Shown here: in pieces, positions 1 to 54,314 of the stretch
How positions within the stretch are numbered: position 1 is the first letter of the stretch
Layout of the letters: each line of letters opens with the position of its first letter
IMG/VR virus record: IMGVR_UViG_3300021400_001778
Location: 8,923 to 72,922 of that record
DNA length: 64,000 bases
Reading direction: 5' to 3' (one strand)
Source of the DNA: a virus
Lineage: Duplodnaviria; Heunggongvirae; Uroviricota; Caudoviricetes
Made by a program: the position numbers and the translations under genes
The notes under the pieces: generated by a model
Database searches by the model: none
Told to the model about the DNA's origin: nothing
The model's input: the letters and a program-made list of their open reading frames with translations, nothing else

Positions 1-1863
1 CAGGTAATGCGTAAAGCCTTATACCACAATAACTAAGAAATTAAGTTATGAAGGTGCGAAAGCAGAAACAACATAAGGATGGCATATGGCAAAACCTAAG
101 TGCTTTTACAATCGCTGTTCTGTAGCGAAGTACCCTAACGTAATCCTTTCATCAAAAGGTAGTTAAGCCGAGGGTAAACGTTCAACGACTATTCCCATGT
201 AGGGATTCAGACATAGAGAATAATGGTGGAAATCCAGAATATCTGAATCAATAGAAGTACGGCGCAATCGCAAATGGCGTGGGAGAAAACCCCTTAAACG
301 GAAAAGGTGTTACTGCTACTCTAACGAGTGTGGTTAAGAAATAGTCTAATCCCGCATGAAAGTGCGGGTTTTATATCACATTAATAATGTAAATATTGAA
401 AAAGTATAATTATATAGATGCATGTAATGAATTTAAAAAACGAGGATATAAATTACTATCAACGGAAGATGAATATAAAAATGTATCTTCTAAATTAAAA
501 TATATATGTCCAAAACATGAAGAAAAAGGAGTGCAACAAATTTCGTTTGGTCATTTAAAAAGCGGAAAAGGTTGCTATTATTGTGGTAGGGAAAGAACTA
601 TATTATCTAAAAAAATTAAAATTGACAAGAATTATGATTCGCAATTAGCAAAAGAAAAGGGATTCGAATATATAGATTCTATTGATGAGAATGGGATATA
701 TTATATATATTTCATATGCGAAAAACATAGGGAATATGGGATTCAGAAAATGCGTAAAAGTAACATGAAGCGTAAATCTTGTGGCGGTTGTAAATATTGC
801 AATCCCGCTTCTTCTGGAGATTTTAAAAAGAGATATGACATTCAACAATTAAAAATATTAAATCCAAATATTGAGATACTTGAAGACTATGTACATTCTA
901 CAGATAGAGTTCAATGTTTATGTAGAGTACATAATGTTATTCACACAAAAACCATTAACGACATAATATCTGGCAAAGGGTGCATAAAATGTGGTATCGA
1001 AAAGAATTTGGAAAAATTAACGTTGACTAATGAAGAGGTAGAAGCAAGAGTACATATATTAAATAGTCATGTTAGTCTCATAAAATATAAAGGATATTCG
1101 AATTCTGAAAGTGTATGGTATTGTAATAAACATGACGCGACATTTAATAAAACGTTTTCTACGTTATGTAATTGTAAAAGCGGTTGTGCTTTATGTTATT
1201 TCGAAAACGTCTCAAATAGATGTACAATAAATATAAATGAAGCGAATAGAATTATACAAAACAAATTTCCATCTTTGTCTATCATAAACGATGGAAGTTA
1301 TGTAAATTTTTCAACTCACGCTAATTTTTATTGTTCTTTGCATGATTATTATTTTACATTAGCACCAGTTAGCATTGTACATAATAGAGTTTCTTGTTGT
1401 AGAAAAAGCAATGTTACGCATAAATCTGAGTTAATGTGTACGTTTTTAGAATCATTGGGATTAATTATAGAACGTGAAAAAACATTTAAAGATTGCAAAG
1501 ATACTTATACCCTACCTTTTGATTGTTATATACCAGAATATAATATAATAATTGAATATGATGGAGAACAACATTTTAAACCAGTTAGATTTAGTAATAA
1601 AGAATCCTATCAAGAGTCTTTATTAAAATTAGAATATACAAAAAAGCATGATAAAATGAAAAATAATTATTGTAAAAGAAACCAAATAGATATTATAAGA
1701 GTTCCGTATTATGTAGATAATATGGAACTTTTTTTAATACAAAATTTAAAAAATTTAGGAGTTAAAGTGTGATATAAAATGCGGAATTTGCGACTCCGCA
1801 AAATAACAATGTGCTATTATAGAACAAGTCGCGGGCAAGCGTGGTGCTTCATTCTTCTCGTCA
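1..1863 (+). mobile_element. Group I intron, 5' end outside the window, carrying a homing-endonuclease ORF in a peripheral (P9-side) position; 3' splice site lies somewhere in 1807-1863
   Basis: ORF-free structured region 1-395 contains the group I R-like element gttcaacgactat (180-192) and the S-like element aagaaatagtc (337-347), giving P7 pairing gactat/atagtc; stable hairpin cccgcatgaaagtgcggg at 345-372; the downstream tail-gene reading frame is open from 1807, upstream of the first ATG at 1864. Confidence 0.6.
396..1772 (+). CDS. Intron-encoded homing endonuclease: five tandem ~45-aa Cys/His modules (CxxH...GxGCxxCG) plus a C-terminal Vsr/DUF559-like (EDxHD-type) PD-(D/E)xK nuclease domain
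   Basis: Repeats YICPKHEE...GKGCYYCG, FICEKHRE...CGGCKYCN, CLCRVHNV...GKGCIKCG, WYCNKHDA...CKSGCALCY and FYCSLHDY...; C-terminus ...PFDCYIPEYNIIIEYDGEQHF...KKHDK resembles the vvEvDGxxH core of Vsr-like nucleases. Confidence 0.55.
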   Translation: MKKYNYIDACNEFKKRGYKLLSTEDEYKNVSSKLKYICPKHEEKGVQQISFGHLKSGKGCYYCGRERTILSKKIKIDKNYDSQLAKEKGFEYIDSIDENGIYYIYFICEKHREYGIQKMRKSNMKRKSCGGCKYCNPASSGDFKKRYDIQQLKILNPNIEILEDYVHSTDRVQCLCRVHNVIHTKTINDIISGKGCIKCGIEKNLEKLTLTNEEVEARVHILNSHVSLIKYKGYSNSESVWYCNKHDATFNKTFSTLCNCKSGCALCYFENVSNRCTININEANRIIQNKFPSLSIINDGSYVNFSTHANFYCSLHDYYFTLAPVSIVHNRVSCCRKSNVTHKSELMCTFLESLGLIIEREKTFKDCKDTYTLPFDCYIPEYNIIIEYDGEQHFKPVRFSNKESYQESLLKLEYTKKHDKMKNNYCKRNQIDIIRVPYYVDNMELFLIQNLKNLGVKV

Positions 1864-4800
1864 ATGATGACAAACTGGAAGGATGCGGAAGATGCTTACG
1901 CGGCGGCTATGAATTCTGCGGGTTCAGCAGAAAAAGAAAATCAATCGTTCCTTAACTCTATCGCGGGTAAACAGGCACAGTTTAAATCAGCGTTCGAATC
2001 ATTGTCGAATGATGTAATCAATAGTGACCTTGTTAAGTTCGGCGTTGATATGGGAACTATGATGGTTAAAGGACTTGACGGTGTTATTAATGCGACTGGT
2101 GGCGGATTAGGCACTGTTATTCTCGGCGGATTAGGTACAACTGCCATTAAGGGCGCGGGCGTATTTACAAAGAAATTTACAGAAGGACTCGGCAAAGAGA
2201 AGTTCGGCGAAGTAGTTGCGGAATATGGTAAGATTGGAACAGCAAAAATGATGGGAGAATCTTTGCTGTCCGCAACAAAAGGATTGGGAATGTTGCTACC
2301 CGCGATGGGAATAACAGCGGGTGTTGCAACTGCCGCGGCTGTCGCATTTAAATTATGGGACGATAATACTGAGCAATTAACAGAAGCGCAACAAAAATTA
2401 TCTAATAGTTTAACAAATAGTAATGCCGCAAGAAAGCAAGTTGAGGATATCACTTCTCAAATTGCAAAAAATCAAGAAGAAATTAAATCAATCGAGCAAG
2501 GCGGAGTTTCTTCTGTTGGCGAGGCTTCAAGAGTTGAGCAATTAAAAAATGAAAACGCACAACTTGGAACAAAGTTAACTTATCAAAAAACAATAGCAGA
2601 TGTTGAAGCTAAGAGTGCCGCTGAATCAGCAAGACGCGCAATTAGTATGGATAATGCATATATGCGCAATGGTGTTTCAACAAGTACGTTAACTGGTAAA
2701 ATTGGTCTCGCAATAAATACATTAGCAGGTCAAGGACATAGTAAAGGTATTTATATGTCCGAGGCGGAACACTTAGACCAAGTTACTGATAATTATATAA
2801 AAACTCAGGATGAACTCAATGCCGCTATGGAAAGCGGTAATCAAGAAACAGTTTCGAAGCTACAAGATGAATTAGTAGACTTAAATAAGGAATATTCTGA
2901 AGGATTAAGCCAACAATACGAATATCTTGACGCTTTTACGGATAAATCTACAGGTAAAGCATTATCTGGTTTCGAGAAGGAATATCAAAGTGCAAGAAAT
3001 CAGATAAATAAAATGCTTAGACCAACGATGGGTGATGACCAATTCCTCAATACTATCCTCGGTTATGGTGAATACGAGGGTGTCGCAGAAGAACTCACAA
3101 ATATGGCTTTAAATGGTGGGTTCAGCAAAGGGTGGGAAAACTCAACACAAAGTATTAGAGATTTTGTGAATGAAGTCAATGCCTCTGGAATGGATAACGC
3201 CGCTAATAAAATTAAGAATCTTTTCACTGGAATTGCAAACGGTTCAACAGATGGGTCTGTTGCTCTTGCGCTTGTGGAAGATAATTTTGAAAGCGTAACC
3301 GAAAGTATAAATGATTTTGAAAATAGATTTTCTAATACTGCGGCGGCGGCAAAAGGCGGATTTTCTTCAAAGGGATTGTCGTTTGGCGAAAAGGGTATTT
3401 TAGGTAGTAGGTATGATTCTGCTATTCAAACAACCGCGAACGGATTTAGATTGAATTATTCAGAATTTGCTAAAAATAGGGCAAGTTCAATTTCTCGTCA
3501 AAGAGCCGATAATCAAGCTGATATAAAACAACTTCAATCATACGGAGATAGTTTAGCGAAATCATATCAAAACATTCAAGATAAAATTGCAAAAGCAAAT
3601 TCGCGTGATGCAAGGCAAGGCGGTTTAGGTGCTGAAAGTATTAGTGAATTAAAATCACAAGCGGCGCAATATGCGCAAGCTATAAAAACCGTTCAAGCAA
3701 GTATAGGAAACTTAAACGATGCGCAGATAGAATTATCTGGTTTAGGTTCTAAATTAAATACATATCTTGATACAGCAAGCGGTGATTATGAATCAACTAA
3801 GAATCTCGATGCAGTTGCCGCATCGTTCGCAAACTTAAAAGAAGAAGTCGATAGAGGTTGGACGAGCGGCGCTCAGGCAAGAGCGTTTACGGACGCTTGG
3901 ACTTACGCGGATATGACAAAAGCAAGTAATCAAGAGATTGCGGATTCTTATGCCGAAGCAGAAGCTAACTACAAAAAGTTCTATGATGTAACACAAAACG
4001 AACGCAGCGGAAAATGGGAATCTGAAATAAATGGCACTAAAATTCTTTCTGAACTTAACAGCGCGGGAGAATCTTTAGGAAAAACTTTTGTTGGTGCTAA
4101 TAAAGATATTAAAATGTCCTCGGAAGATATTGCTAATGTTGCTAAAGTTTGGGGTGTATCAGAATCAATGGCATCTGAACTTGTCGGAGCATTAGATGGA
4201 TTCGAAGGGCATTCTGTAGAAATATCGAGAGTTGGCAAATCCTATGACCAATTAATGCAGTCTATCGGCGGTGCAGATGAAGCGTTACAGAAATATGGTG
4301 ACGGCATCGAAACCGTTGATAAAATATCTAAATCCACAGAAAGTCTGGCGAACCATCTTAATGATGTGCAAGAAGCCCGACATGCGGCATCTCAATCAGA
4401 TGATATTGATAGTTTCAACGCTTTAAACGCCGAACTTGCAAAAACCGCGAAACTCGCGGCACGAGTTGAAGAGCGCAATGGGTTTGAGAATAATCTTATG
4501 AACTTCAATGCTTCTGATTCTTCTTCAATGGATTTTAAGAATAGAATTGAATTACTTAAAGATGCGCAAGAAGCTGTTGAGGACTTAAATTATACTAAAA
4601 CCGTAGATAAATATGCCCCCGGAATGCTTGGCGTAGATGCTGTTAGCACGGCAGAAGGAGCTGTTGATAGCGCAAATCATGCTATCGCGCAATATATTTC
4701 AGAAAATGGATTAGCTTCAGACCTCGAAGGGTTAAGCCCAGACGCCACGCAAGAGGAAATAGCTGATTATATATCTGGTATGGAAATCAGCGACTTAGCA

Positions 4801-7800
4801 CCGAAATTAGGTATAGATTTAAGTAATGCGGAAGTTTCTGGTACTGATAACATGGCGGCAACAATAGCCGAACAAGCTAACGCTTCTGTCGCGTCAATGA
4901 TAGAAAACGCTAATGCGGTTACCGAAGCATTACAAAGCAACGGTGGATTAGAAGGTCAAAACTATTCTCTTATGATGAATAGTGATGGTAGTTTTGGAAT
5001 TCAGATTACGCCGCATGTAGACGAAGCGGCACTTGCAGAAAGTACATCAAGAGGTATTTCGCAAGGCGCAAACAGTGAAGAAGTAACTGAATCTGTTGGC
5101 AAAGGTATTTCAAGTGGTGTCGATAAAGGAACGGAACAATACGGCAAGAAACTTGGAGAGATTCACGCTGACGAACAGTTCAGTATGGGCGGTAGACCAG
5201 AACTCGGAGAAGCCGTAACTGTCGAAGCCGATGTTAAAGCAAAGGGTGATATAGACACATCTGGCATAAATCCAGAAATTGAAGCTAATGTTACGGCAAA
5301 TGAAGTGGAAATGCCAGAGGATAGCGAAGCACAAGTAAATGTAAATGCCGTTGCCGATAACGTAGAAGTTCCGCAAGGTGACGCGGGTACAGTAAACGTG
5401 AATGCTGTAGCAGATAATGTTGAAGTTCCGCAAGGTGACGCGGGTACGGTTAATGTTGACGCTGTTGCGGATAACGTAGAAGTGCCAGACGAAGCGGGTT
5501 CTGTAAGTGTTTCTGTTGAAGCGGAAGAACCGCCAGAATATCCAGACCAAAATCCGAAAGTCACATACGGTATTAATGCACCGCCCGCACCAGTGTATCC
5601 AGACCAAAATCCATCTGTTAATTATCATATTAACGCTCCTTCTCCGCCCTCTTATCCCAATATTAGTAGGACGGTAACGTATCATATAAATACTGTTGGT
5701 TCAGCACCAAAGTATAATGGAACTGCTAATTATAACGGTACTGCACATTTTGGCGGCACAGCTTATGCAAGCGGAAATTGGGGGACAAAGAAAAAAGAAA
5801 CTGCTCTTGTTGGCGAGTTAGGAATGGAAACCGTTGTTTACGGCGGTAAGTTCTGGACTGTTGGCGATAAAGGCGCGGAATTTACGAGTATCCCTAAAGG
5901 TGCGATAGTATTCAACCATAAACAAACAGAAGAATTATTCAAGAACGGAAAAGTTCTTTCTGGTGGCGGAAGGGGTAATATAGCACATGCGAATGGCACA
6001 GCTTACGCTTCTGGTACTGCTCTCGCGTCTGGAAATACTGATTACGATTTTGCCGCAATAAAAATTGACCGTCTTAATGACGAAATTAGCTTACTCGCTG
6101 ATACTATGGAACTCTTTGAAAAGTATACGGAATCTAATGCATATGCTCAAAAAGAGTTGGCAAAAGTACATGAAGCAATTCTTGCGAATGAGCAAGCGTA
6201 TGCTTATTACCTTGATAAAGCTAATCAAGTTGGGCTTGACGAGGGGCATGTTGAAAAAGTCAAAAATGGCACAATAGAAATTGAATCTATTGGCGATGAA
6301 GATTTAAAAAAGAAAGTTGATGATTATAAGAAGTGGTATGAGGCGGCTCAAAATACTCAAAGTGCAATTGTAAAACTTAAAAAGGAATTGCAAGAAATAT
6401 CAAAAATAAAACTTGATAATATAGAGAAGCAATTCCAGTGGTGGGAAGATTGGCGCGAAGCAGTACAAGAAAGAAATCAAACAGCTAATGATTTATATAA
6501 AGAATTAAATAGCCGCGACAATTTAGATAGAGTAACTACCGATATAGACCATTATGTAAGTTTAATTGCTGAGAATGAACAAAGAATAAAAACAATAGGG
6601 AAAGAACGCGACGCGCAAGTTGCGAACGGTGAAATTTTAAAATATTCTCAAGCATGGTATGAAGCATCTCAACGTTGTGTTGAAGCGCAAATAGAAATTA
6701 ATGAAGCTAAATTAAAAATAGAAGAACTTAATAATACCATAAAGGAAACTAATTGGAAGAATTTTGATAATTTATTATCAAAGTATGATTCGCTCAGAAA
6801 CGAAATTGATACTACTTACGACTTGGTTAGTGATATGAATCCATTTAGGGATGATGCTACCATGAACACAAATGGTAAAGGACAACTTGCCATGTTGCAA
6901 AGTTCTATGCAAATAGCTAAACAAGAAGTTAAAAACTACGAAATAGCTTATTCCGCTTTAAATAAAGAATTGAAAAAAGGAATAATTTCGCAAGACGAAT
7001 ATAATGAACAATTATATGATTTGCGAAAAGACCAGTTAGATGCGGTGCAATCTGTAAAGAAATACCGCGATGCAATTCTTGATTTAGTTAAAGATGGTAT
7101 AGAAAAGGAAACTGAGGCTTTTGAAAAACTTGTTACTGCCCGTCAAGATAATCTCCAAAAGCAAAAGGAAGCTGACGATTACGCGCGGAATATTCGAGAT
7201 AAAACAAAGGATATTAACGCTATCGAGGCTCAAATTGCCGCTTTATCTGGCGATGAATCTCTTGCAACTCGCGCTCAAATTAGAGATTTAGAAGCAAAAC
7301 TTCAAGAGGCACAACAGGATTTAGACGATACGCGGCGAGACCACGAGTATGACACAATGTCTAAAGCGTATGATAAAGAACTTGAAGATTTTAAAAAGAT
7401 TCAAGACGAAAAGATAAATGATTTAGAAACATATCTTGCATCACAAAAGACAGCTATCAATGACGCATTAACATTCATACGTGACGATTATAAAAATACT
7501 TATGACAGAATGAGTAGTATCGCTAAATCGTATGGAATAACACTTAATAATAGCATCTTAAATCCGTGGACTTCTGCGGCTAAAGCGGTAAAGGCTTACA
7601 ATAATGCTATATCAAATATTAAATCTGCTAATGTAAAAATTAAAACAAATAATTTCAAAGGTCAAGCAAAGAGCAAAAAGGCTCGCGGTACTTTTAATGC
7701 TTCTCAAGGATTAACGCTTACAGACGAAGAAGGTTTAGAGGCAATTTTAACCAAGGACGGTGTGTTGAGACAGCTTGATTCTGGCGATACAGTATTTAAT

Positions 7801-8055
7801 GCGCAACAACGCGAAATGCTTTGGAAAATAAGTAAAATGTCGCCATCGACATTAATTAGAAAGCCTAATATCGCGGCAAATATTAATTCTGGTAAGGGAA
7901 TGAACGGAGATATTAATATTAATTACGATATCACTGTAGAAGGTAATGCGGATAATAACACGGTTGCTGATATTGAAGATATTTGTAAACGTGCGGCGGA
8001 ATACACAAAGAGCGATATGATTAAATCATTTAGAAAAATTGGTATTGCAATGTAA
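1864..8055 (+). CDS. Tail tape-measure protein, 2063 aa from the first ATG; the frame is open from 1807, so this may be exon 2 of an intron-split gene
   Basis: Very long coiled-coil and Gly/Ala-rich ORF located before the distal-tail and tail-fibre genes; internal tandem peptide repeats; in-frame open region 1807-1863. Confidence 0.7.
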   Translation: MMTNWKDAEDAYAAAMNSAGSAEKENQSFLNSIAGKQAQFKSAFESLSNDVINSDLVKFGVDMGTMMVKGLDGVINATGGGLGTVILGGLGTTAIKGAGVFTKKFTEGLGKEKFGEVVAEYGKIGTAKMMGESLLSATKGLGMLLPAMGITAGVATAAAVAFKLWDDNTEQLTEAQQKLSNSLTNSNAARKQVEDITSQIAKNQEEIKSIEQGGVSSVGEASRVEQLKNENAQLGTKLTYQKTIADVEAKSAAESARRAISMDNAYMRNGVSTSTLTGKIGLAINTLAGQGHSKGIYMSEAEHLDQVTDNYIKTQDELNAAMESGNQETVSKLQDELVDLNKEYSEGLSQQYEYLDAFTDKSTGKALSGFEKEYQSARNQINKMLRPTMGDDQFLNTILGYGEYEGVAEELTNMALNGGFSKGWENSTQSIRDFVNEVNASGMDNAANKIKNLFTGIANGSTDGSVALALVEDNFESVTESINDFENRFSNTAAAAKGGFSSKGLSFGEKGILGSRYDSAIQTTANGFRLNYSEFAKNRASSISRQRADNQADIKQLQSYGDSLAKSYQNIQDKIAKANSRDARQGGLGAESISELKSQAAQYAQAIKTVQASIGNLNDAQIELSGLGSKLNTYLDTASGDYESTKNLDAVAASFANLKEEVDRGWTSGAQARAFTDAWTYADMTKASNQEIADSYAEAEANYKKFYDVTQNERSGKWESEINGTKILSELNSAGESLGKTFVGANKDIKMSSEDIANVAKVWGVSESMASELVGALDGFEGHSVEISRVGKSYDQLMQSIGGADEALQKYGDGIETVDKISKSTESLANHLNDVQEARHAASQSDDIDSFNALNAELAKTAKLAARVEERNGFENNLMNFNASDSSSMDFKNRIELLKDAQEAVEDLNYTKTVDKYAPGMLGVDAVSTAEGAVDSANHAIAQYISENGLASDLEGLSPDATQEEIADYISGMEISDLAPKLGIDLSNAEVSGTDNMAATIAEQANASVASMIENANAVTEALQSNGGLEGQNYSLMMNSDGSFGIQITPHVDEAALAESTSRGISQGANSEEVTESVGKGISSGVDKGTEQYGKKLGEIHADEQFSMGGRPELGEAVTVEADVKAKGDIDTSGINPEIEANVTANEVEMPEDSEAQVNVNAVADNVEVPQGDAGTVNVNAVADNVEVPQGDAGTVNVDAVADNVEVPDEAGSVSVSVEAEEPPEYPDQNPKVTYGINAPPAPVYPDQNPSVNYHINAPSPPSYPNISRTVTYHINTVGSAPKYNGTANYNGTAHFGGTAYASGNWGTKKKETALVGELGMETVVYGGKFWTVGDKGAEFTSIPKGAIVFNHKQTEELFKNGKVLSGGGRGNIAHANGTAYASGTALASGNTDYDFAAIKIDRLNDEISLLADTMELFEKYTESNAYAQKELAKVHEAILANEQAYAYYLDKANQVGLDEGHVEKVKNGTIEIESIGDEDLKKKVDDYKKWYEAAQNTQSAIVKLKKELQEISKIKLDNIEKQFQWWEDWREAVQERNQTANDLYKELNSRDNLDRVTTDIDHYVSLIAENEQRIKTIGKERDAQVANGEILKYSQAWYEASQRCVEAQIEINEAKLKIEELNNTIKETNWKNFDNLLSKYDSLRNEIDTTYDLVSDMNPFRDDATMNTNGKGQLAMLQSSMQIAKQEVKNYEIAYSALNKELKKGIISQDEYNEQLYDLRKDQLDAVQSVKKYRDAILDLVKDGIEKETEAFEKLVTARQDNLQKQKEADDYARNIRDKTKDINAIEAQIAALSGDESLATRAQIRDLEAKLQEAQQDLDDTRRDHEYDTMSKAYDKELEDFKKIQDEKINDLETYLASQKTAINDALTFIRDDYKNTYDRMSSIAKSYGITLNNSILNPWTSAAKAVKAYNNAISNIKSANVKIKTNNFKGQAKSKKARGTFNASQGLTLTDEEGLEAILTKDGVLRQLDSGDTVFNAQQREMLWKISKMSPSTLIRKPNIAANINSGKGMNGDININYDITVEGNADNNTVADIEDICKRAAEYTKSDMIKSFRKIGIAM
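5330..5650 (+). repeat. In-frame tandem repeats inside the tape-measure gene: 3 x 57 nt (NVNAVADNVEVPQGDAGTV) followed by 2-3 x YPDQNPxVxYxINAP units
   Basis: Direct repetition visible in both DNA and the translated protein. Confidence 0.7.
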
Positions 8056-8062
8056 ATATATT

Positions 8063-8092
8063 TGGGGAGGGTTACTACTCTCCCCTTTTTAT
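8063..8092 (+). terminator. Hairpin followed by a T-run directly after the tape-measure stop (possible partial terminator or attenuator inside the tail operon)
   Basis: ggggagggttactactctcccc followed by ttttt. Confidence 0.4.
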
Positions 8093-8109
8093 TATGGAGG
8101 AAAATAATA

Positions 8110-8934
8110 ATGACGGTGCAAGCTAAAGATTTTATGTTTAACGGTGTATTGTTATCAAGTTTAAATAATGATTATGAACTTGTTTCATTCGATACTTCAC
8201 CGTCAGACACAAGTGTGGGCTTTATGGATAATAAAGTCGAAATGAGCGATATAAATTATAATTCACCAGTCGTTCATTTTTATCATTCAACTGCAAAAGA
8301 TACGTTGCAATTCGATATTATGATATCGAAAAGGAATGGTAAATATTTAACACAATCAGAAATCCGCGAATTATCTGGTTGGTTAACAAGTCCTATCTCT
8401 CCTAAAGTTTTATCGTTTGTTAAATATAAAAGAGATGATGGGACGGCGGTTTATGAAGATTTAGAATATATAGGCGTGTTTAATAAAGCAGAATATTCTG
8501 AAATGGGACAAGTACAAAAAATGGGTGTAGGTTTTAGCTTCACGAATATATCTGCATTTGCTTTTACGAAAGAAAGTGAAGTGAATGTAAATAATACGTT
8601 GGAAGATAAAACTATTATTATATCAAGCGATGGAACTGCAACTGGATTACCAATATATCCCGTTATAGAGATAATGCCGACAGAAGATGGTACAGTTTTT
8701 ATTACGAATCTTTCTAATAAAAATGATACTGGTTTTGGAGTAAACGTCAAAAATGGGGAAAAAATAGTAATTAAAGATTTTAATGTATTTTCTGATGATG
8801 GCAGTTTATACAGCTTTGACAATTTAACAAGTTTAATGTTCCCATACTTAATTGACGGAGATAATGAAATTAAAATACAAGGCAGATGTACTTGTAAATT
8901 TATTTATAGATTTTTAGAAAATATAGGTGTTTAA
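8110..8934 (+). CDS. Distal tail protein (Dit)-like structural protein; the ATG at 8110 is preferred over the longer ORF starting at 8062
   Basis: Position immediately after the tape-measure gene; ggagg ribosome-binding site at 8095-8099 precedes the ATG at 8110. Confidence 0.45.
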   Translation: MTVQAKDFMFNGVLLSSLNNDYELVSFDTSPSDTSVGFMDNKVEMSDINYNSPVVHFYHSTAKDTLQFDIMISKRNGKYLTQSEIRELSGWLTSPISPKVLSFVKYKRDDGTAVYEDLEYIGVFNKAEYSEMGQVQKMGVGFSFTNISAFAFTKESEVNVNNTLEDKTIIISSDGTATGLPIYPVIEIMPTEDGTVFITNLSNKNDTGFGVNVKNGEKIVIKDFNVFSDDGSLYSFDNLTSLMFPYLIDGDNEIKIQGRCTCKFIYRFLENIGV

Positions 8935-8949
8935 GGAGGTGTTTTATAA

Positions 8950-11900
8950 TTGGCAAATAATTTACTGTCGATTATAGATGGCAAGATACAAATCAAAAAT
9001 GATGCTTACGGCAAAGTAGATACTTTTACTCCATTTATATGCCGCGCTGATAAAAAAATTATATGCTCTCTTACGGGTGTTACAAAGTTTGATGTTGCAT
9101 TAAAACTTACCGACATCTCCGAGATAGATTTTACAGTATCGAAATATATAACAAATTCTTCTACTTTCGAGCAAGAATTAAACCCCGCTTACAAATATCT
9201 CAATTCGTTTTACGGAATTTTAATACCAGAATTAGGGCAATATGGGTATTTCCGAATCAATGAAGAGCCAACAATAAAGGCGGAAAATACGAGATATGAA
9301 ATGAAGTCGTTTACTGCTTATTCTGGCGAAAGTGTTATGCAATATGAACATATTACTGGTTTCTTTGTAAATCAAGGAACTACACAAAGTCTTGAAATGT
9401 TTACAGAAAATCTCACACCGACAGGATTACCAGAGAAAAAAATTCAGTTATATAATCCTGATGATTCAAAATTAAGTTTGCTTGATTTGGTTCTTTCGGA
9501 TGATTATTATGGTTGGACTATAGGACACGTTGATAGGTCTATTCAAACATTGATGCGGGCGTTTTCAATATCGAATAGCCAGAATGTATATTCATTTTTA
9601 ACAAAAGATGTCGCACAAGCATTTAGATGTATTTTTGATTTTGATACAATTCATAATGTAATTAATGTTTATTCTATAGATGATTACGGCAAGAATACAA
9701 ATATTTATCTTTCTTTCGAAAGATTTGTTCAAGAGATAAAAGTTAAGCAAAGTAATGACGAAATTTATACAGTATTTAATGTTCGCGGTGATAATGATTT
9801 AGATATATCTTATGTAAATTTTGGTAGCAATAAAATTACAAATGTTGATTATCCTCTTTATATGATGGATAAAGAAATTTATAATACATACAAATTATAT
9901 GAATCTTATCGCGATTCATTAAGACAAAGTTATAAAGATTTAATGATTGATTATAGTCATCAGCAACAGTTACTTTCGGCTTTAATGGATAGACAACCAC
10001 AAGATTCTATTAATAACAATTGGTCTTCTACTGTATATTATTCTCTTGATGATTTACAAACCGATTTAGCAATGTTTAAGGCGGCGGTGGAATTAATAGA
10101 GCAAATATATACAGATGAAAGCGGTGTTATTGATTATGAAGAGTTAAATAAATCGGCTGACGCGGCATTATATTACTCTTATAAATCTGTGAATATTCCA
10201 GATATAGAAAATGAAATTAAATATAGAAGTGGTGAAATCGGAAAACGTGAAGATAAAGTTAATAGTGATATAGTTTGGGAAATGTATGGTTTAAACGACC
10301 TTATACTAAAACGTGAAACGTATTTGGAACTTATTAATACTCTTGCTGAGTCTGGATATACAGAACCGTGGGATAACACTAAAACTATATCGCGAGAAAC
10401 GTGGAATGCACATTATCAAGAATGGCAAGATTATCAGGTATACGTAGAAGAACTTGACGAATTAATTGACAAGAAAACAGAACAAGTAAATGATATTAAA
10501 GAAAGAATTGATGATGATTTATCACAATTAAAGGATATAGCGGAAAAATCATCTCTTGAATATTATTATAATACATTTGGCGAAAACTTTTCTGAGGATG
10601 CAGTTAATTATCCACAAATTATAAAATCACTTTATAAAGAAAGTGATTATGTAGATTCTAATTATTTGATAACTTCTACAGATGATACGCTTGCTATTAT
10701 TGCGGAATCAGAAGAATTATATCAAGCGGCAAAGAAAAGACTTGATATCGAATCAAGACCGCAACTTGTATGGAGCGTAGATACTGATAATTTATACGCA
10801 ACAAAAGACTTTGAATCTCTCAGAAACCATTTACAGCTTGGAGATTTTATAAATCTCATTTTCGACACTGAACGATTCGCACATCAATATAATGACTCGA
10901 ACATCAATATGGAATTAGAAGATAGTTTTGATGTAGAGGATGATACTATTGGTAGAAATATTTTATTAAATACTAAAAATGCACGCACAAGTGCCGCCGC
11001 CGAAAATAATTCAGCGTATACAACTTATTATTACGCGACAGATTTCGGTGAAAATTATTTTGACGAGGAAGGTTGTGTTTTAACGATTACTGCGGATTAT
11101 GAAGTAATCGGAGAAGTTACGGACAACTCTCATTTATATGTCCAGTTAAACGGTACTGCGATTGTTCCGACAGAAGGTCAGCGTGTTCAACAGTATGTTG
11201 CGAACAATAAAATTGGTGTATATGAAAGAACATTTAAACTTACGGCAAATCAACTTAGTTCTGAATATACACGTTTAAGATTTAGATTATACGGAAATGG
11301 AACATTAGATGGCGCGAAAGTTAAAATTAGTAATGTTAAGTTAGAAATTGGAAATAAAGCTACTGCATATTCTCCCGCACCAGAAGACGGCGATTTAGTG
11401 GTAAATATAGCTGATAATATTAACATAGAAAATAACACTTTTATAGGAAAAAATTGCCGTTTTAGGGTATCTGAAATCAATTTTAATGCATTAGATTACT
11501 CCGATTTTTCAATAACATTTGCAGATATTATTAAAAGTAGGGCGGGCAGTTCTGATATAGAGTCAATTTTAGATTCATATATTTCATCACGCTCTAACCA
11601 AATTAGGATTGATGCGTCAAATAATGCTTCTGCTGTTGCTTCTGAGGTGGCGGCTTCGTTAATAAAGCCATATTTGCAAGTAACCAATACCGCAATAGAG
11701 AATGCACAGATTACAAATGCACAAATTGAAGATTTGGAAGCGGTCAACGCAACTATAAGAACTTTAATGACAAATTATCTCGAAGCGGACTCCGCTACAA
11801 TTTTCGATTTAGTTACTGAAAATATTACAGTAAACAAGTATCTTGAAATTGTTAGCGATATAAACGGTTCTGTCGCGTTTGATAATTCGCGCATGAAATT

Positions 11901-38016: not shown

Positions 38017-39297
38017 TTATGCTGTTTGGATACTCGCGACTTTAGCCGTGAGAGGAAAACAACTTCTCCTTTCTATAAGATATCCATTAACATGTTCTAA
38101 TAATTTTAACTTCTTATAACTAATATTTCCTTTATTCACTTTATCTCCACTTAAATTTCTTATATCAAAATACCCAGTTTTTCTTCTTGCGAAGATAAAA
38201 TACTGTTTCCCTTGATACATTACTCTATCGTATAAATGAAACCCATGTATATCATAATCTGTCTGATTTCTTTTCTTTACGCCACCTTTGCAGATATTGA
38301 ATTTATGAATTTGGCGATTATGTCTTCTAACTTTCCTATAATAGTAAATACAATCATCGTCTTTTGCTAATGTATTTCCGCTAATACATCGCGCGTCTAT
38401 ATAATGTTCTTTCGGCAAACCATGAAGAATCCTACTGTTCTTTGTAATATATCCGAATGTCATAGATACATCTTTATATCTACTTTTTAATTCGTTGTAG
38501 AACGCCCATCGCATAATCCCCATAAACGTTGCGTCTCTAAAAGACATGCCACGTTTGATTGTATTAGGAAGTTTTACCGTCCCATTGTGATATCCTTTGT
38601 GGCAAGTTTCGCAAAGTGTAATTAAATTGTTTGGCGCATCACCACCCGTCTTTCTACTTTCGATATGATGAACATTTAAAATCTTATCTTTTGACTTACC
38701 TTTACAGCATTGGCAAGTGTGACCATCTCTGAACAATACATATTCACGCACGTTCCAAAATCCAAGCTGTTCACCCTCTTGATACATTTCGTTATGTATA
38801 TCAGGGTTTTTAATCTTCTGTATATCAAAAGACGCTGTTTCAACCACAATCTTTGATATAGGAAGAATATTATAAATCTTATCAACCACAGATAAATGCG
38901 TTTCAATTTTGTGTCTGATGCTTGGCGATAACCATTTCTCGCATCGCTTTCGGTTGTTGAAACGTGCTTTGCGATATCTTGTTTTGCGATTTCTTCGTTC
39001 TTTTCTTGCTCCGCGCCTTGTAGATAACTTCTCTACAATATCGTTTCGGAGTTCTACTTCCGATTCAAATAAAACTTGATTACTTGTAGTTGCTGATAAT
39101 CCTATAGTTTTACTTCCACTATCAACTCCAAGAGAGATATCTTGAATAACATTTCCAGTTTCGTATAATAATTGAATCGTGAACGGATTTTTATTAATTA
39201 CCTTTGCTTTATTGTCTCGCAAAAGTCTTCTTACTTTCCCAAAACGCTTCGTTGGCATTAAAGGTTTTCCGTCTCGATTTATCACATAAACAAACAT
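38017..39297 (-). CDS. iscB: IscB (OMEGA-system RNA-guided nuclease, IS200/IS605-associated ancestor of Cas9)
   Basis: N-terminal PLMP domain (INRDGKPLMPTKRFGKVRRLL), RuvC-I (ISLGVDSGSKTIG), Arg-rich bridge helix, HNH (CQCCKG...NVHHIESRKTGGDAPNNLITLCETCHKGYHN), RuvC-III (KEHYIDARC); 426 aa. Confidence 0.85.
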   Translation of the reverse strand: MFVYVINRDGKPLMPTKRFGKVRRLLRDNKAKVINKNPFTIQLLYETGNVIQDISLGVDSGSKTIGLSATTSNQVLFESEVELRNDIVEKLSTRRGARKERRNRKTRYRKARFNNRKRCEKWLSPSIRHKIETHLSVVDKIYNILPISKIVVETASFDIQKIKNPDIHNEMYQEGEQLGFWNVREYVLFRDGHTCQCCKGKSKDKILNVHHIESRKTGGDAPNNLITLCETCHKGYHNGTVKLPNTIKRGMSFRDATFMGIMRWAFYNELKSRYKDVSMTFGYITKNSRILHGLPKEHYIDARCISGNTLAKDDDCIYYYRKVRRHNRQIHKFNICKGGVKKRNQTDYDIHGFHLYDRVMYQGKQYFIFARRKTGYFDIRNLSGDKVNKGNISYKKLKLLEHVNGYLIERRSCFPLTAKVASIQTA

Positions 39298-39620
39298 AAT
39301 ACTCCTATGATATGTTTTGTTGTTGTAAACCAGTACATATCAACTGTAAGATAACCATCGTCAATGTTATGGAAAGGTTTACATATGCACAACACTGTTC
39401 CTACCCATTAGAACTGTTTAATCATGCGTCGTAGAGTTACAGACTTGGTTATACATCCGTAAGTACCTATACATTCTTTCCTAACGTAGTGTCCGAAACA
39501 CTTAGACTAATCAATAACGAACTTTCGCAAGTCCGTGACTTTAGTCATGGGTTATTGACGCTCTTTCCACTATTTCAAGAGCATCACTTAATATTGAATT
39601 TACCATAAATATGCCTCCTA
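39298..39620 (-). ncRNA. Candidate omega-RNA (HEARO-type) for IscB: ORF-free, higher-GC region immediately 5' of iscB
   Basis: About 320 nt with no ORF and many inverted repeats, in the position expected for an IscB omega-RNA; a promoter lies just upstream at 39627-39655. Confidence 0.5.
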
Positions 39621-52354: not shown

Positions 52355-52358
52355 TAAT

Positions 52359-52430
52359 TGTGAGTTCGGGACTCGAACCCGAAACCTACCGCTTATAAGG
52401 CGGGTGCGCTCACCAGTTGCGCTAACTCAC
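52359..52430 (-). tRNA. tRNA, anticodon read as UAU (Ile); possibly a different identity if the anticodon stem is mis-drawn
   Basis: Reverse complement GTGAGTTAGCGCAACTGGTGAGCGCACCCGCCTTATAAGCGGTAGGTTTCGGGTTCGAGTCCCGAACTCACA; 7-bp acceptor, TCGGG/CCCGA T-stem, GTTCGAG T-loop; anticodon loop CTTATAA. Confidence 0.45.
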
Positions 52431-52439
52431 ATTATTTAA

Positions 52440-52512
52440 CAGGGGTAGTTGGATTCGAACCAACGAAATGCAGCAGTCAAAGTGCTGTGCCTTACCTCTT
52501 GGCGATACCCCT
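52440..52512 (-). tRNA. tRNA-Gln (anticodon UUG)
   Basis: Reverse complement AGGGGTATCGCCAAGAGGTAAGGCACAGCACTTTGACTGCTGCATTTCGTTGGTTCGAATCCAACTACCCCTG closely resembles E. coli tRNA-Gln (3-bp D-stem; anticodon loop CTTTGAC). Confidence 0.7.
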
Positions 52513-52627
52513 ATTTTTATTATACTGTGCCTTTCGCAATAAAGGATTTCGCGACGCGTCACTACTTTCCACACTTCCGTAAAAGCTGTCTTTCACCGTC
52601 AATCCGCAAATTTCGGAGGGCATTTAT

Positions 52628-53446
52628 TTATTCTTCTACCAATTTAATAAATTTTGCTGTACCTCTATTTAAATCTTCGAGAGAATTAAATTTACTTACG
52701 CCACCCGTCGGTCGTACATCTCCATCATCATCTATAAGTTTACCATCGGAAATTTCATAAACCTTTCCAAGTGTGTATCCTTCGTACTCTTTTGTACAAA
52801 CAACTTTCATATTAAACTTTTTATTGTAAATTTCATCCTTTGATTCAGTGTATAAATCGAAGCAACTACAATCTACCCACCAGTAGTCGCTATTATTACC
52901 TTCTTTATGCACCTTCATTCGGAATTTAAGTTCTGGTGTCATTCTAATATTTATTTCTGAAACAACACCAATCCAACCTTTATTTGTCAAAGCGTAATGG
53001 TTCTTGTCATTACCTATAACTTTATCACCAACAGTAAATCCTAAAATAAGGCGACTGAAAGCGAGAATTGCACCAGTTTTAAAATCATACTTATCCTTCG
53101 GATTGCACTTTGCTGTACACTTTTCTTTGGTGTTTTTGTTAAGAGCGGTGACAACGCTCCCATTATTGTAAATCACAATAGATTCCTTAGATGGCAATTC
53201 TTTTTCAACCTTCTCTAAGCCGCGTTCATCCCAAATATACGGTGGGATATCAGATAATATATAATAAATCATACCATCTTTATTTGATGATACTGATTCA
53301 ATAGTATGTTCTTCGCCAATATACTCATTCATTCCCTCTTCACCAACCGACCAATTACCAGTGTAATTTTCGATTTTTGAGCCATCCATGATTCTTACTT
53401 TATCGCCAACTTTGAACTTACCAGTAATTTTTTCTTCTTTCATTTC
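52628..53446 (-). CDS. Hypothetical protein (start taken at MKEEKITGKF; the longer ORF would overlap a tRNA-like gene)
   Basis: ORF lying between tRNA genes. Confidence 0.4.
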   Translation of the reverse strand, partial: EMKEEKITGKFKVGDKVRIMDGSKIENYTGNWSVGEEGMNEYIGEEHTIESVSSNKDGMIYYILSDIPPYIWDERGLEKVEKELPSKESIVIYNNGSVVTALNKNTKEKCTAKCNPKDKYDFKTGAILAFSRLILGFTVGDKVIGNDKNHYALTNKGWIGVVSEINIRMTPELKFRMKVHKEGNNSDYWWVDCSCFDLYTESKDEIYNKKFNMKVVCTKEYEGYTLGKVYEISDGKLIDDDGDVRPTGGVSKFNSLEDLNRGTAKFIKLVEE

Positions 53447-53474
53447 AAAAACCCTTTCTTTTTTATTTTTAATA

Positions 53475-53543
53475 TTGGAGTGGCGGGATTCGAACCCGCA
53501 CTCCGTTGTACAAACGTACTCTTCCACTAAGCTACACTCCGAA
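53475..53543 (-). tRNA. tRNA-like gene of atypical length (~68 nt) with canonical D- and T-arms and a C1:A72 mismatch; anticodon uncertain (GUA, Tyr-like, if a 3-bp anticodon stem is assumed)
   Basis: Reverse complement CGGAGTGTAGCTTAGTGGAAGAGTACGTTTGTACAACGGAGTGCGGGTTCGAATCCCGCCACTCCAA; T-arm GCGGG-TTCGAAT-CCCGC. Confidence 0.35.
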
Positions 53544-53544
53544 C

Positions 53545-54230
53545 TGGCGACCCCTTGTACTTCGGTGGTACTTTAATGCTCATTAACACACCAGTTTTAT
53601 GTACGTTCGATTTGGTTACGGCTACTCTCGACAAAGTAACTATTGCGCACTGGTCACTTCCGTACAAAATACACTTACAAGCTACCGAAAGCCCGCCCCT
53701 TTGCCTTTACTCTTATTACGCTACGTGAGGGTTTTAAGTGCCACTTGTCGCCAAGCACAACCTGTCGTTTTACGCGCATATGCGGTATATTTCACTTGTA
53801 AGATGGCAGAAAAGAGATATTTATCAGCTAATATCACTTTATACGCTACCTATTTTCTCCTTATAACCACCCCCAACACACCATTCGCTGATAAATACGT
53901 GATTATAAGGTAAAAAATTCTTACGCATCTGCCTATTGTTCTGATAAGGATTTGCACCTTACATGCAAGAGTTTTTAAACCACGCGTGCTAACTATTGTA
54001 TGCATCCAATCCCTTGCACAGCACGCTTTACGTCTACCTATTCCGCCACAGAACATGTTATTTTGTCTCCACAAAGGTTACAAACCTAAGAATCGAAATC
54101 ACGCTTTCGCTTCTCATTTTGAACGGGTTCGCGCGACCCGCCCGCGCCGATTTTAAGTTATATTATATCGGGAACTTAGGCAGTCTAAAGGAAACTTACC
54201 ATCCCTCTGCTGTTTGAGTATACAGCATAA
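53545..54230 (-). ncRNA. About 690-nt ORF-free, GC-enriched region flanked by tRNAs and downstream of a strong promoter: candidate large structured ncRNA (ROOL/GOLLD-like); strand assumed from co-orientation with the tRNAs
   Basis: No ORF of 60 aa or more apart from two short overlapping ones on both strands; GC-rich helices such as cgggttcgcgcgacccgcccgcgccg; ROOL and GOLLD RNAs are typically found next to tRNAs in phages. Confidence 0.45.
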
Positions 54231-54314
54231 TGCGGATAATGGGATTCGAACCCACATGGTTAAATAACCGAGGGATTTTAAGTCCCTTGCGTCTGCCAAT
54301 TTCGCCATATCCGC
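54231..54314 (-). tRNA. tRNA-Leu (anticodon UAA), long variable arm
   Basis: Reverse complement GCGGATATGGCGAAATTGGCAGACGCAAGGGACTTAAAATCCCTCGGTTATTTAACCATGTGGGTTCGAATCCCATTATCCGCA resembles bacterial tRNA-Leu(UAA). Confidence 0.7.

Follow-up and report, generated by a model that had tools for sequence, protein, structure and literature searches.

A probable mobile group I intron with a homing endonuclease gene in the tape-measure gene of a gut phage

Introduction

The introns in orf142 of Staphylococcus phage Twort and the td intron of phage T4 are group I introns of subgroup IA2, and their self-splicing has been demonstrated experimentally. In prophages of the Bacillus cereus group, group I introns of subgroups IA1 and IA2 occupy three sites (TMP-IVS1, TMP-IVS2 and TMP-IVS3) in the tape-measure protein (TMP) gene, with P1 helices adapted to the different sites (Tourasse and Kolsto 2008, PMC2504315). 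Here we describe a 64,000-nucleotide (nt) stretch of DNA from a Caudoviricetes virus (IMG/VR record IMGVR_UViG_3300021400_001778, positions 8,923 to 72,922; hereafter the window, with 1-based positions). An original prediction, made from the sequence alone, had placed at its start a group I intron that carries a homing endonuclease gene (HEG), directly upstream of and probably inside the TMP gene. Our analysis favors this reading: with a probability of about 0.9, window 1–1811 corresponds to nt 51–1861, the 3′ 97%, of a mobile, HEG-bearing group I intron of 1,861 nt that interrupts a TP901-type TMP gene.

The view that introns are uncommon in phage tail genes is tempered by the three prophage TMP-gene sites published in 2008 (PMC2504315). 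Introns are also known from other phage structural genes, namely the terminase genes of LL-H and Moonbeam, the capsid gene of Tuc2009, and capsid and tail genes of Cluster J mycobacteriophages. Like TMP-IVS1/2/3, the intron studied here is of subgroup IA and lies in a phage TMP gene; several sites per gene are occupied, the P1 helices of related introns are adapted to their sites, and HEG-bearing and HEG-less forms exist. Unlike them, its family resides in gut Clostridia-type phages. Additional hairpins separate P7.2 from the 3′ strand of P3, a kissing loop reaches P9.1, and the splice site is without a U·G pair, whereas insertion after U was stressed for TMP-IVS (PMC2504315). A search of a phage collection detected no DNA similarity to TMP-IVS1/2/3, the prophage introns themselves lying outside that comparison.

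Results

The first 50 nt of the intron, which hold P1, P2 and the 5′ strand of P3, and the upstream TMP exons lie outside the window and were taken from contigs encoding exactly the same 458-amino acid (aa) nuclease (L002 and L003; at least three assemblies from different samples). Window position 1 is position 9606 of L002, which is 136 kb long; there, TMP exon 1 (6672–9053, carrying PF10145) is followed by a stretch or intron of ~308 nt devoid of open reading frames (ORFs; 9054–9361), exon 2 (9362–9555, 194 nt) and the intron under study. Upstream TMP exons are present, as proposed for a split gene. Exon 3 covers window 1812–8055 (plus strand, as are all intron features below) and is in phase 2, with ‘gc’ from exon 2 joined to ‘t’ at 1812. 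The annotated 2,063-aa ORF at 1864–8055, which matches TMP profiles, is only the ATG-started part of this exon. Its frame is open from 1807, directly after a TAA at 1804–1806, and the first ATG is at 1864, as originally noted. The claim that the stretches on both sides of the nuclease ORF are free of ORFs was correct for 1–395, where no ORF of at least 40 aa was found; for 1773–1863, it needs amending for a trivial 58-aa ORF in another frame (1779–1955).

Fifteen uninterrupted PF10145 proteins retrieved by protein search aligned without gaps across both junctions of the conceptually joined TMP pieces (‘...ALRIRG-x-KTELADAG...’ and ‘...SDMNRA-x-IIEQVAGKR...’), and the PF10145 core region is continuous across the exons, the conceptual splice product being colinear with these 15 proteins. 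Exons 1 and 2 supply 858 2/3 codons, and the profile match of the exon 3 ORF begins at position 849. The first 159 aa of this ORF align to positions 849–1021 of a 2,625-position TMP profile, in agreement with the earlier impression that its N-terminus reads as internal TMP sequence, and the residues encoded by 1812–1863, upstream of the ATG, are conserved TMP sequence. A complete TMP N-terminus with its own ribosome-binding site at 1864 had been considered as the opposite outcome; no purine-rich ribosome-binding sequence precedes that ATG. The spliced gene would comprise 2,382 + 194 + 6,244 nt, that is, 2,939 codons plus a stop, and a TMP of 2,939 aa would mean a very long tail. The window intron is the second of two in this TMP gene, and the third of three in some strains: L003 is the same as L002 except for one extra ORF-less insertion of 291 nt in sequence that is continuously coding in L002, a difference that represents an intron presence/absence polymorphism.

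The RNA structure was tested on an alignment (A4) of 15 distinct ‘mini-introns’ from at least four insertion sites, from which the ORF insert had been removed. The model consists of 21 helices with 99 pairs (1,454 cells), and the controls were models whose 3′ partners were slid by 1–3 columns and 500 shuffles. Standard pairs occupied 96.0% of the cells, compared with 32–46% in the slid controls. Compensatory changes on both sides were observed in 61 of the 99 pairs, and none of the 500 shuffles reached the observed values. The model contains P2, P3, P4, P5 with an extended P5a–d, P6/P6a, P7, P7.1/P7.2, two peripheral hairpins (K and M), P8, P9 and, after the ORF, P9.1; the core helices P3–P9 are in canonical order and 84–100% paired. 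The group I pseudoknot is made by P3 and P7, both of which are paired in 100% of cells and show compensatory changes. Consensus elements P, Q, R and S can be recognized as AATTGCAGGTAA, TTCATGCAGC, GTTCAACGACTA and AAGAAATAGTC, the first two being seen as such in the alignment of relatives. The original group I reading is in this way backed by a complete, covarying fold.

The window opens within the P4–P5 domain (1–125; helices 3–8 of the model, 84–100% paired). The 5′ strand of P4 (CTACAG) spans positions −2 to 3, so that the window begins inside it, and the 3′ strand (CTGTAG) lies at 120–125. Within the domain are P5 (9–11/113–115, compensatory changes at 3/3 pairs), P5a (17–22/73–78), P5b (29–33/45–49), P5c (55–57/62–64, with a GAAA loop) and P5d (81–84/101–104), whose loop is invariant across the family. 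P6 pairs TACCCT (131–136) with AGGGTA (171–176); it is 95.6% paired, with three pairs changed on both sides, and encloses P6a (145–149/155–159; 100% paired, four pairs changed on both sides), while P6 is a plain hairpin in I1-type relatives. The R element gttcaacgactat was found where it had been predicted, at 180–192, and consists of J6/7 and the 5′ strand of P7. The S element aagaaatagtc was likewise located at 337–347, within the segment formed by J8/7 and the 3′ strand of P7 (331–347). The P7 proposed from them (GACTA at 187–191, TAGTC at 342–346) goes beyond chance: it was paired in 100% of cells in the 15 related introns, with compensatory changes at two of the five pairs.

Between P7 and the 3′ strand of P3 lies the P7.1/P7.2 domain (192–256), which comprises a closing helix (192–194/254–256, 3/3 pairs compensatory), P7.1 (195–196/202–203) and P7.2 (205–211/242–248, 7/7 pairs compensatory; inner hairpin 225–226/234–235). 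By this arrangement the intron has a subgroup IA (IA2-like) architecture. Additional to the IA pattern are K (262–265/277–280) and M (281–283/291–293), both 100% paired. The 3′ strand of P3 (GGTGT, 306–310) pairs with ACATT located 6–10 nt upstream of the window (L002 9595–9599); one P3 pair varies among UA, CG and AU, and the relative L056 has ACGCC/GGCGT. P8 (317–321/326–330) is 100% paired, with 4/5 pairs compensatory, and P9 (351–368), which has a GAAA loop, is 91% paired, with 6/7 pairs compensatory. P9.1 (GCGGA-ATTTGCGAC-TCCGC, 1781–1799) has compensatory changes at all five pairs. Rfam's group I model, RF00028, aligned end to end (model positions 1–253) to L056 1921–2253 (35.4 bits, E=1e-5). 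This compact family member is without P7.2, K and M; the element assignments of RF00028 agree with the covariation model, including the L056 segment homologous to the R element, which was aligned to the R consensus.

Other pairings were considered and set aside. A hairpin cgct/agcg at 113–126 conflicts with the covarying P4 and P5, and P4 as AGG/CCT, which would use the invariant P5d loop, was discarded. For P3, ‘ttctgt’/‘atagaa’ was dropped in favor of ACATT/GGTGT, and so was ‘gcga’/‘tcgc’, as the TCGCAA loop kisses the P9.1 loop instead.

As the Twort orf142 and T4 td introns are described, the present intron shares with them the core order P7, P7.1, P7.2, P3′, P8, P7′, a near-identical R segment (CAACGACUAU) followed by a CCC/GGG hairpin, and the occurrence of several introns in one phage gene. 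Its family differs from them in a much larger P5 domain, two more hairpins, an ORF between P9 and P9.1 and another pair at the cleavage site.

The nuclease ORF (396–1772, TTG start) follows the S element as originally stated. It is an optional insert between P9 and P9.1, where a long helix loops it out. Three independent observations place the ORF within the RNA fold. First, the distance between P9 and P9.1 is 4–40 nt in eight ORF-less family members versus 966–1,674 nt in the others, and the ORF-less relatives differ solely by the missing insert. Secondly, a closing helix of 12–16 bp, lineage-specific in sequence and abutting both P9 and P9.1, was present in all nine ORF-bearing members examined; in the window it has ~14 bp (369–382/1766–1779) and covers the HEG stop codon (1770–1772). 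Thirdly, the K loop TCGCAA (268–273), located before the ORF, is complementary to the P9.1 loop TTGCGA (1788–1793), located after it. These kissing loops are 98.9% paired and covary (TCGCAA/TTGCGA, TCGCTA/TAGCGA and TCACAA/TTGTGA). P9 on the plus strand (351–378) and P9.1 on the minus strand (1770–1800) each form a terminator-like hairpin with the same TTTTATATCA tail, and these tails are the two strands of the ORF-closing helix.

At the 3′ end, a tail at 1800–1811 ends in the omega-G (1811), so that the 3′ splice site would lie between 1811 and 1812. The terminal G is invariant and follows P9.1 by 8–14 nt in all mapped 3′ ends (14 listed). L002 differs from the window by a 1-nt indel at 1805/1806, and that stretch is therefore non-coding. 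At 1821 and 1837, the two sequences differ only synonymously. An 8-bp P10 is formed by the start of the 3′ exon (TGCTATTA, 1812–1819) and the guide TAATAGTA in the P1 loop (L002 9556–9563), and analogous P10 pairings exist in relatives (I1, aatttc/gaaatt; I2, aagttt/aaactt). At the 5′ end, a site-specific hairpin directly precedes the conserved core in 29 distinct introns. Family homology starts right after this hairpin. The last bases of the upstream exon form its 5′ strand, and its sequence varies with the insertion site, as is characteristic of P1 with the internal guide sequence. The protein is colinear with its homologs only if exon 2 ends in ...cgg gc (L002 9555) and exon 3 starts with t gct att..., which gives the putative ligated junction ...cgggc/tgctatta... 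(...gatatgaatcgggc/tgctattatagaac...; the slash marks the junction). The predicted product reads ...SDMNRA-A-IIEQVAGKRG..., with the junction-spanning peptide DMNRAAIIEQVAGK / NRAAIIEQVAGK.

With virtually no exception, the nucleotide before a group I intron is a U paired with G, and this U·G has been described as critical for the choice of the 5′ splice site (PMC2504315). In the present family, every member has a pyrimidine at position −1 of the inferred 5′ splice site, and in no case is it part of a U·G wobble: the pair is C-G in ~18 distinct introns and U-A in ~10, and in the genome of the window C is opposite A (P1 cgggC/ta...taAcccg, where position −1 is L002 9555, 50 nt upstream of the window). 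The RF00028 alignment of L056 also sets a C under the conserved U of the model. Splice-site combinations with U at −1 were rejected, as they are out of frame or add 4–6 residues absent from all homologs. The first intron nt equals the first nt of the 3′ exon in every family member, and a shift of both sites by +1 would yield the same mRNA; this shift was not preferred, as it would abolish the omega-G. Natural C-G exceptions at the 5′ splice site were reportedly described by Hur and Waring in 1995 from fungal mitochondria. With a Watson–Crick pair in ~28 of the 29 distinct members, it is conceivable, though we hold it somewhat less probable than its converse, that this widespread gut-phage IA-type lineage selects the 5′ splice site without the canonical U·G.

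The HEG product has five C-x2-H...C-x2-C zinc-ribbon-like repeats, read from the translation, and a C-terminal nuclease domain. It matched PHROG 559, 9084 and 7140 (annotated as HNH, homing or intron-encoded nucleases) and, weakly, the zinc-ribbon-type Pfam families CapR and DUF723; homologs also carry DUF4379. One of its 669 homologs at E≤1e-5 is named very-short-patch-repair endonuclease by its source. For the C-terminal 143 aa, an alignment of 24 sequences gave an AlphaFold (AF2) model with a pLDDT of 89.8, and the top Foldseek matches of this model were the Vsr endonuclease structures 1CW0 and 1VSR (probability 1.00, TM 0.58–0.61, E-values only ~1e-3). In this domain, E29, D61, E72, H78 and D104 vary little or not at all among homologs and follow the E-D-x-H-D order, with no significant sequence match to 3R3P. 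The I-Bth0305I family is defined by this residue order (PMC3239194). Like I-Bth0305I (PMC3239194), the window protein is predicted to be an intron-encoded phage nuclease with N-terminal DNA-binding modules and a C-terminal Vsr-like catalytic domain, and its invariant residues come in the same order; unlike it, its N-terminus consists of the five zinc-ribbon-like repeats and not of NUMOD/HTH modules, and its long helix resembles that of Vsr more than that of I-Bth0305I. We classified it as a putative Vsr-like, EDxHD-type homing endonuclease, an assignment in which the fold is supported by the model and the equivalence of the motif is tentative.

A 17-nt pattern from the S region, searched against the viral contigs of IMG/VR, retrieved 76 contigs with ~55 true homologs, representing 29 distinct sequences. 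Most copies are in TP901-type TMP genes, at no fewer than four insertion sites, and several loci have multiple introns, with five exon blocks in L066. No second copy of the intron was found within the window. In megablast and blastn searches of the phage collection, the only related DNA among deposited phages was the unannotated fecal phage MT835469 (L001), which has two copies in its own TMP gene. A scan of genome contigs gave mostly chance matches, and eight of 120 loci were real; the real homologs include metagenome-assembled genomes labelled Ruminococcus, Dysosmobacter, Lachnospiraceae, Clostridia and Bacilli. Introns of this family are frequent in the TMP genes of gut phages, and a single gene often has several introns.

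A second, ORF-less intron type of ~290–308 nt is present in the same TMP gene (L002 9054–9361; L003 7846–8136 and 8319–8626). These introns end in ...acagattG and gave no Rfam match, and their 5′ splice sites show the canonical U·G (gggT/...Gccc, taggT/...Gccta). Directly upstream of the family member in L056, a second and weaker RF00028 match (E=0.093) at 1583–1793 hints at one more type of intron there, in the same TMP gene. In MT835469, the frame breaks again after ...KMTYAA at 8384 and is followed by a long non-coding stretch and further small ORFs (L001 8385–9600), which may represent more introns of other kinds. Exon 3 of the window contains a 57-nt tandem repeat in 2.6 copies (5334–5483) encoding VNVNAVADNVEVPQGDAGT repeats.

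Elsewhere in the window, on the minus strand, a HEARO RNA (RF02033, 131.7 bits) at 39346–39559 precedes an ORF of 426 aa (38017–39297) with an HNH motif (HHIESRKTGGDAPNNLITLCETCH). Together (38017–39559), they look like an IscB/OMEGA-like RNA-guided nuclease element in a phage genome. A cluster of four tRNA genes lies at 52358–54314, also on the minus strand.

Discussion

Several observations weigh against the presence of a functional group I intron at this locus. A scan with the Rfam group I model, which the original prediction had proposed as a check, gave no match in the window (gathering threshold, E≤10), nor, even at E≤1, in the L003 source contig that includes the 5′ part of the intron. 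The score of L056 is under the gathering score of 50, and the relative L018 gave no RF00028 match. P9 with the following TTTTAT scores as terminator-like. Searches of the nuclease against PDB, with the single sequence and with a profile, and against NCBIfam returned nothing meaningful and no significant match to a solved structure; the family to which we provisionally assign it rests on the predicted fold. The splice junctions were inferred from colinearity, the omega-G and P10 rather than from RNA data. Finally, the C opposite A in place of the near-universal U·G could mean poor or helper-dependent splicing. As regards the Rfam result, the lack of a model hit, which the original prediction had listed as refuting, is not a valid refutation because RF00028 matches L056, a compact relative of the same family; the most likely cause of the miss is the large size of the P5 domain together with the additional hairpins.

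Two other explanations were weighed against a splicing intron. A free-standing HEG with flanking non-coding DNA might have split the TMP gene into pieces that are translated separately and assemble without RNA splicing. Free-standing HEGs that split phage genes are known, and the in-frame ATG at 1864 of the downstream ORF and the silence of Rfam on the window would fit such an arrangement. However, the flanking DNA forms a conserved, covarying group I fold whose halves are tied together across the ORF by the kissing loop and the closing helix, ORF-less versions of the element still interrupt TMP genes, and the ATG at 1864 has no ribosome-binding site and lies downstream of conserved TMP codons (1812–1863). 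We regard this explanation as very improbable. Slightly less remote, and still improbable, is that the element is a group I intron by descent which is crippled or helper-dependent here through the C opposite A, the TMP being made inefficiently or its gene decaying. This mismatch in P1 is unique to the lineage of the window within the family, and it affects the position for which U·G was described as critical (PMC2504315). Against this, no fewer than three assemblies, made from different samples, carry the same intron sequence with intact exons and HEG, every other helix is intact, and the family as a whole, although it has no U·G, has been maintained at many sites in an essential gene. In geometry, moreover, a protonated C·A pair is the same as G·U. 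A mobile group I intron that splices remains the preferred reading.

If so, the transcript would splice itself by two transesterifications: an exogenous G would attack after C(−1), 50 nt upstream of the window, and the freed exon would then attack after the omega-G at 1811. With exons 2 and 3 joined in this way, one TMP of 2,939 aa would be translated. For homing, the zinc-ribbon-like repeats would bind DNA and the Vsr-like domain would cut intronless TMP alleles of co-infecting phages, after which repair would copy the intron in.

A HEG-bearing group I intron in a TMP gene is of a kind already known; the new points are the size of the gut-phage family, its invisibility to Rfam, the peripheral kissing loop that spans the ORF and the missing wobble at the inferred 5′ splice site. 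On our reading, three or four exons together encode the TMP of this phage, a single protein of 2,939 aa, for which gene callers report unrelated fragments and ‘hypothetical’ ORFs. The same annotation error will recur in many gut-phage genomes, since IMG/VR contains 29 distinct introns of the family and a TMP gene can have as many as five exon blocks. Since the only group I model of Rfam misses the family, such introns are systematically under-counted in viromes, and the present alignment and structure could seed a new model. The nuclease, as an uncharacterized and probably Vsr-like homing enzyme with modular zinc-ribbon repeats, is of interest as a tool. The family-wide absence of U·G provides a natural test set for the definition of the 5′ splice site by group I ribozymes; if the introns of this family splice efficiently, their scissile bond must be marked by some means other than the wobble.

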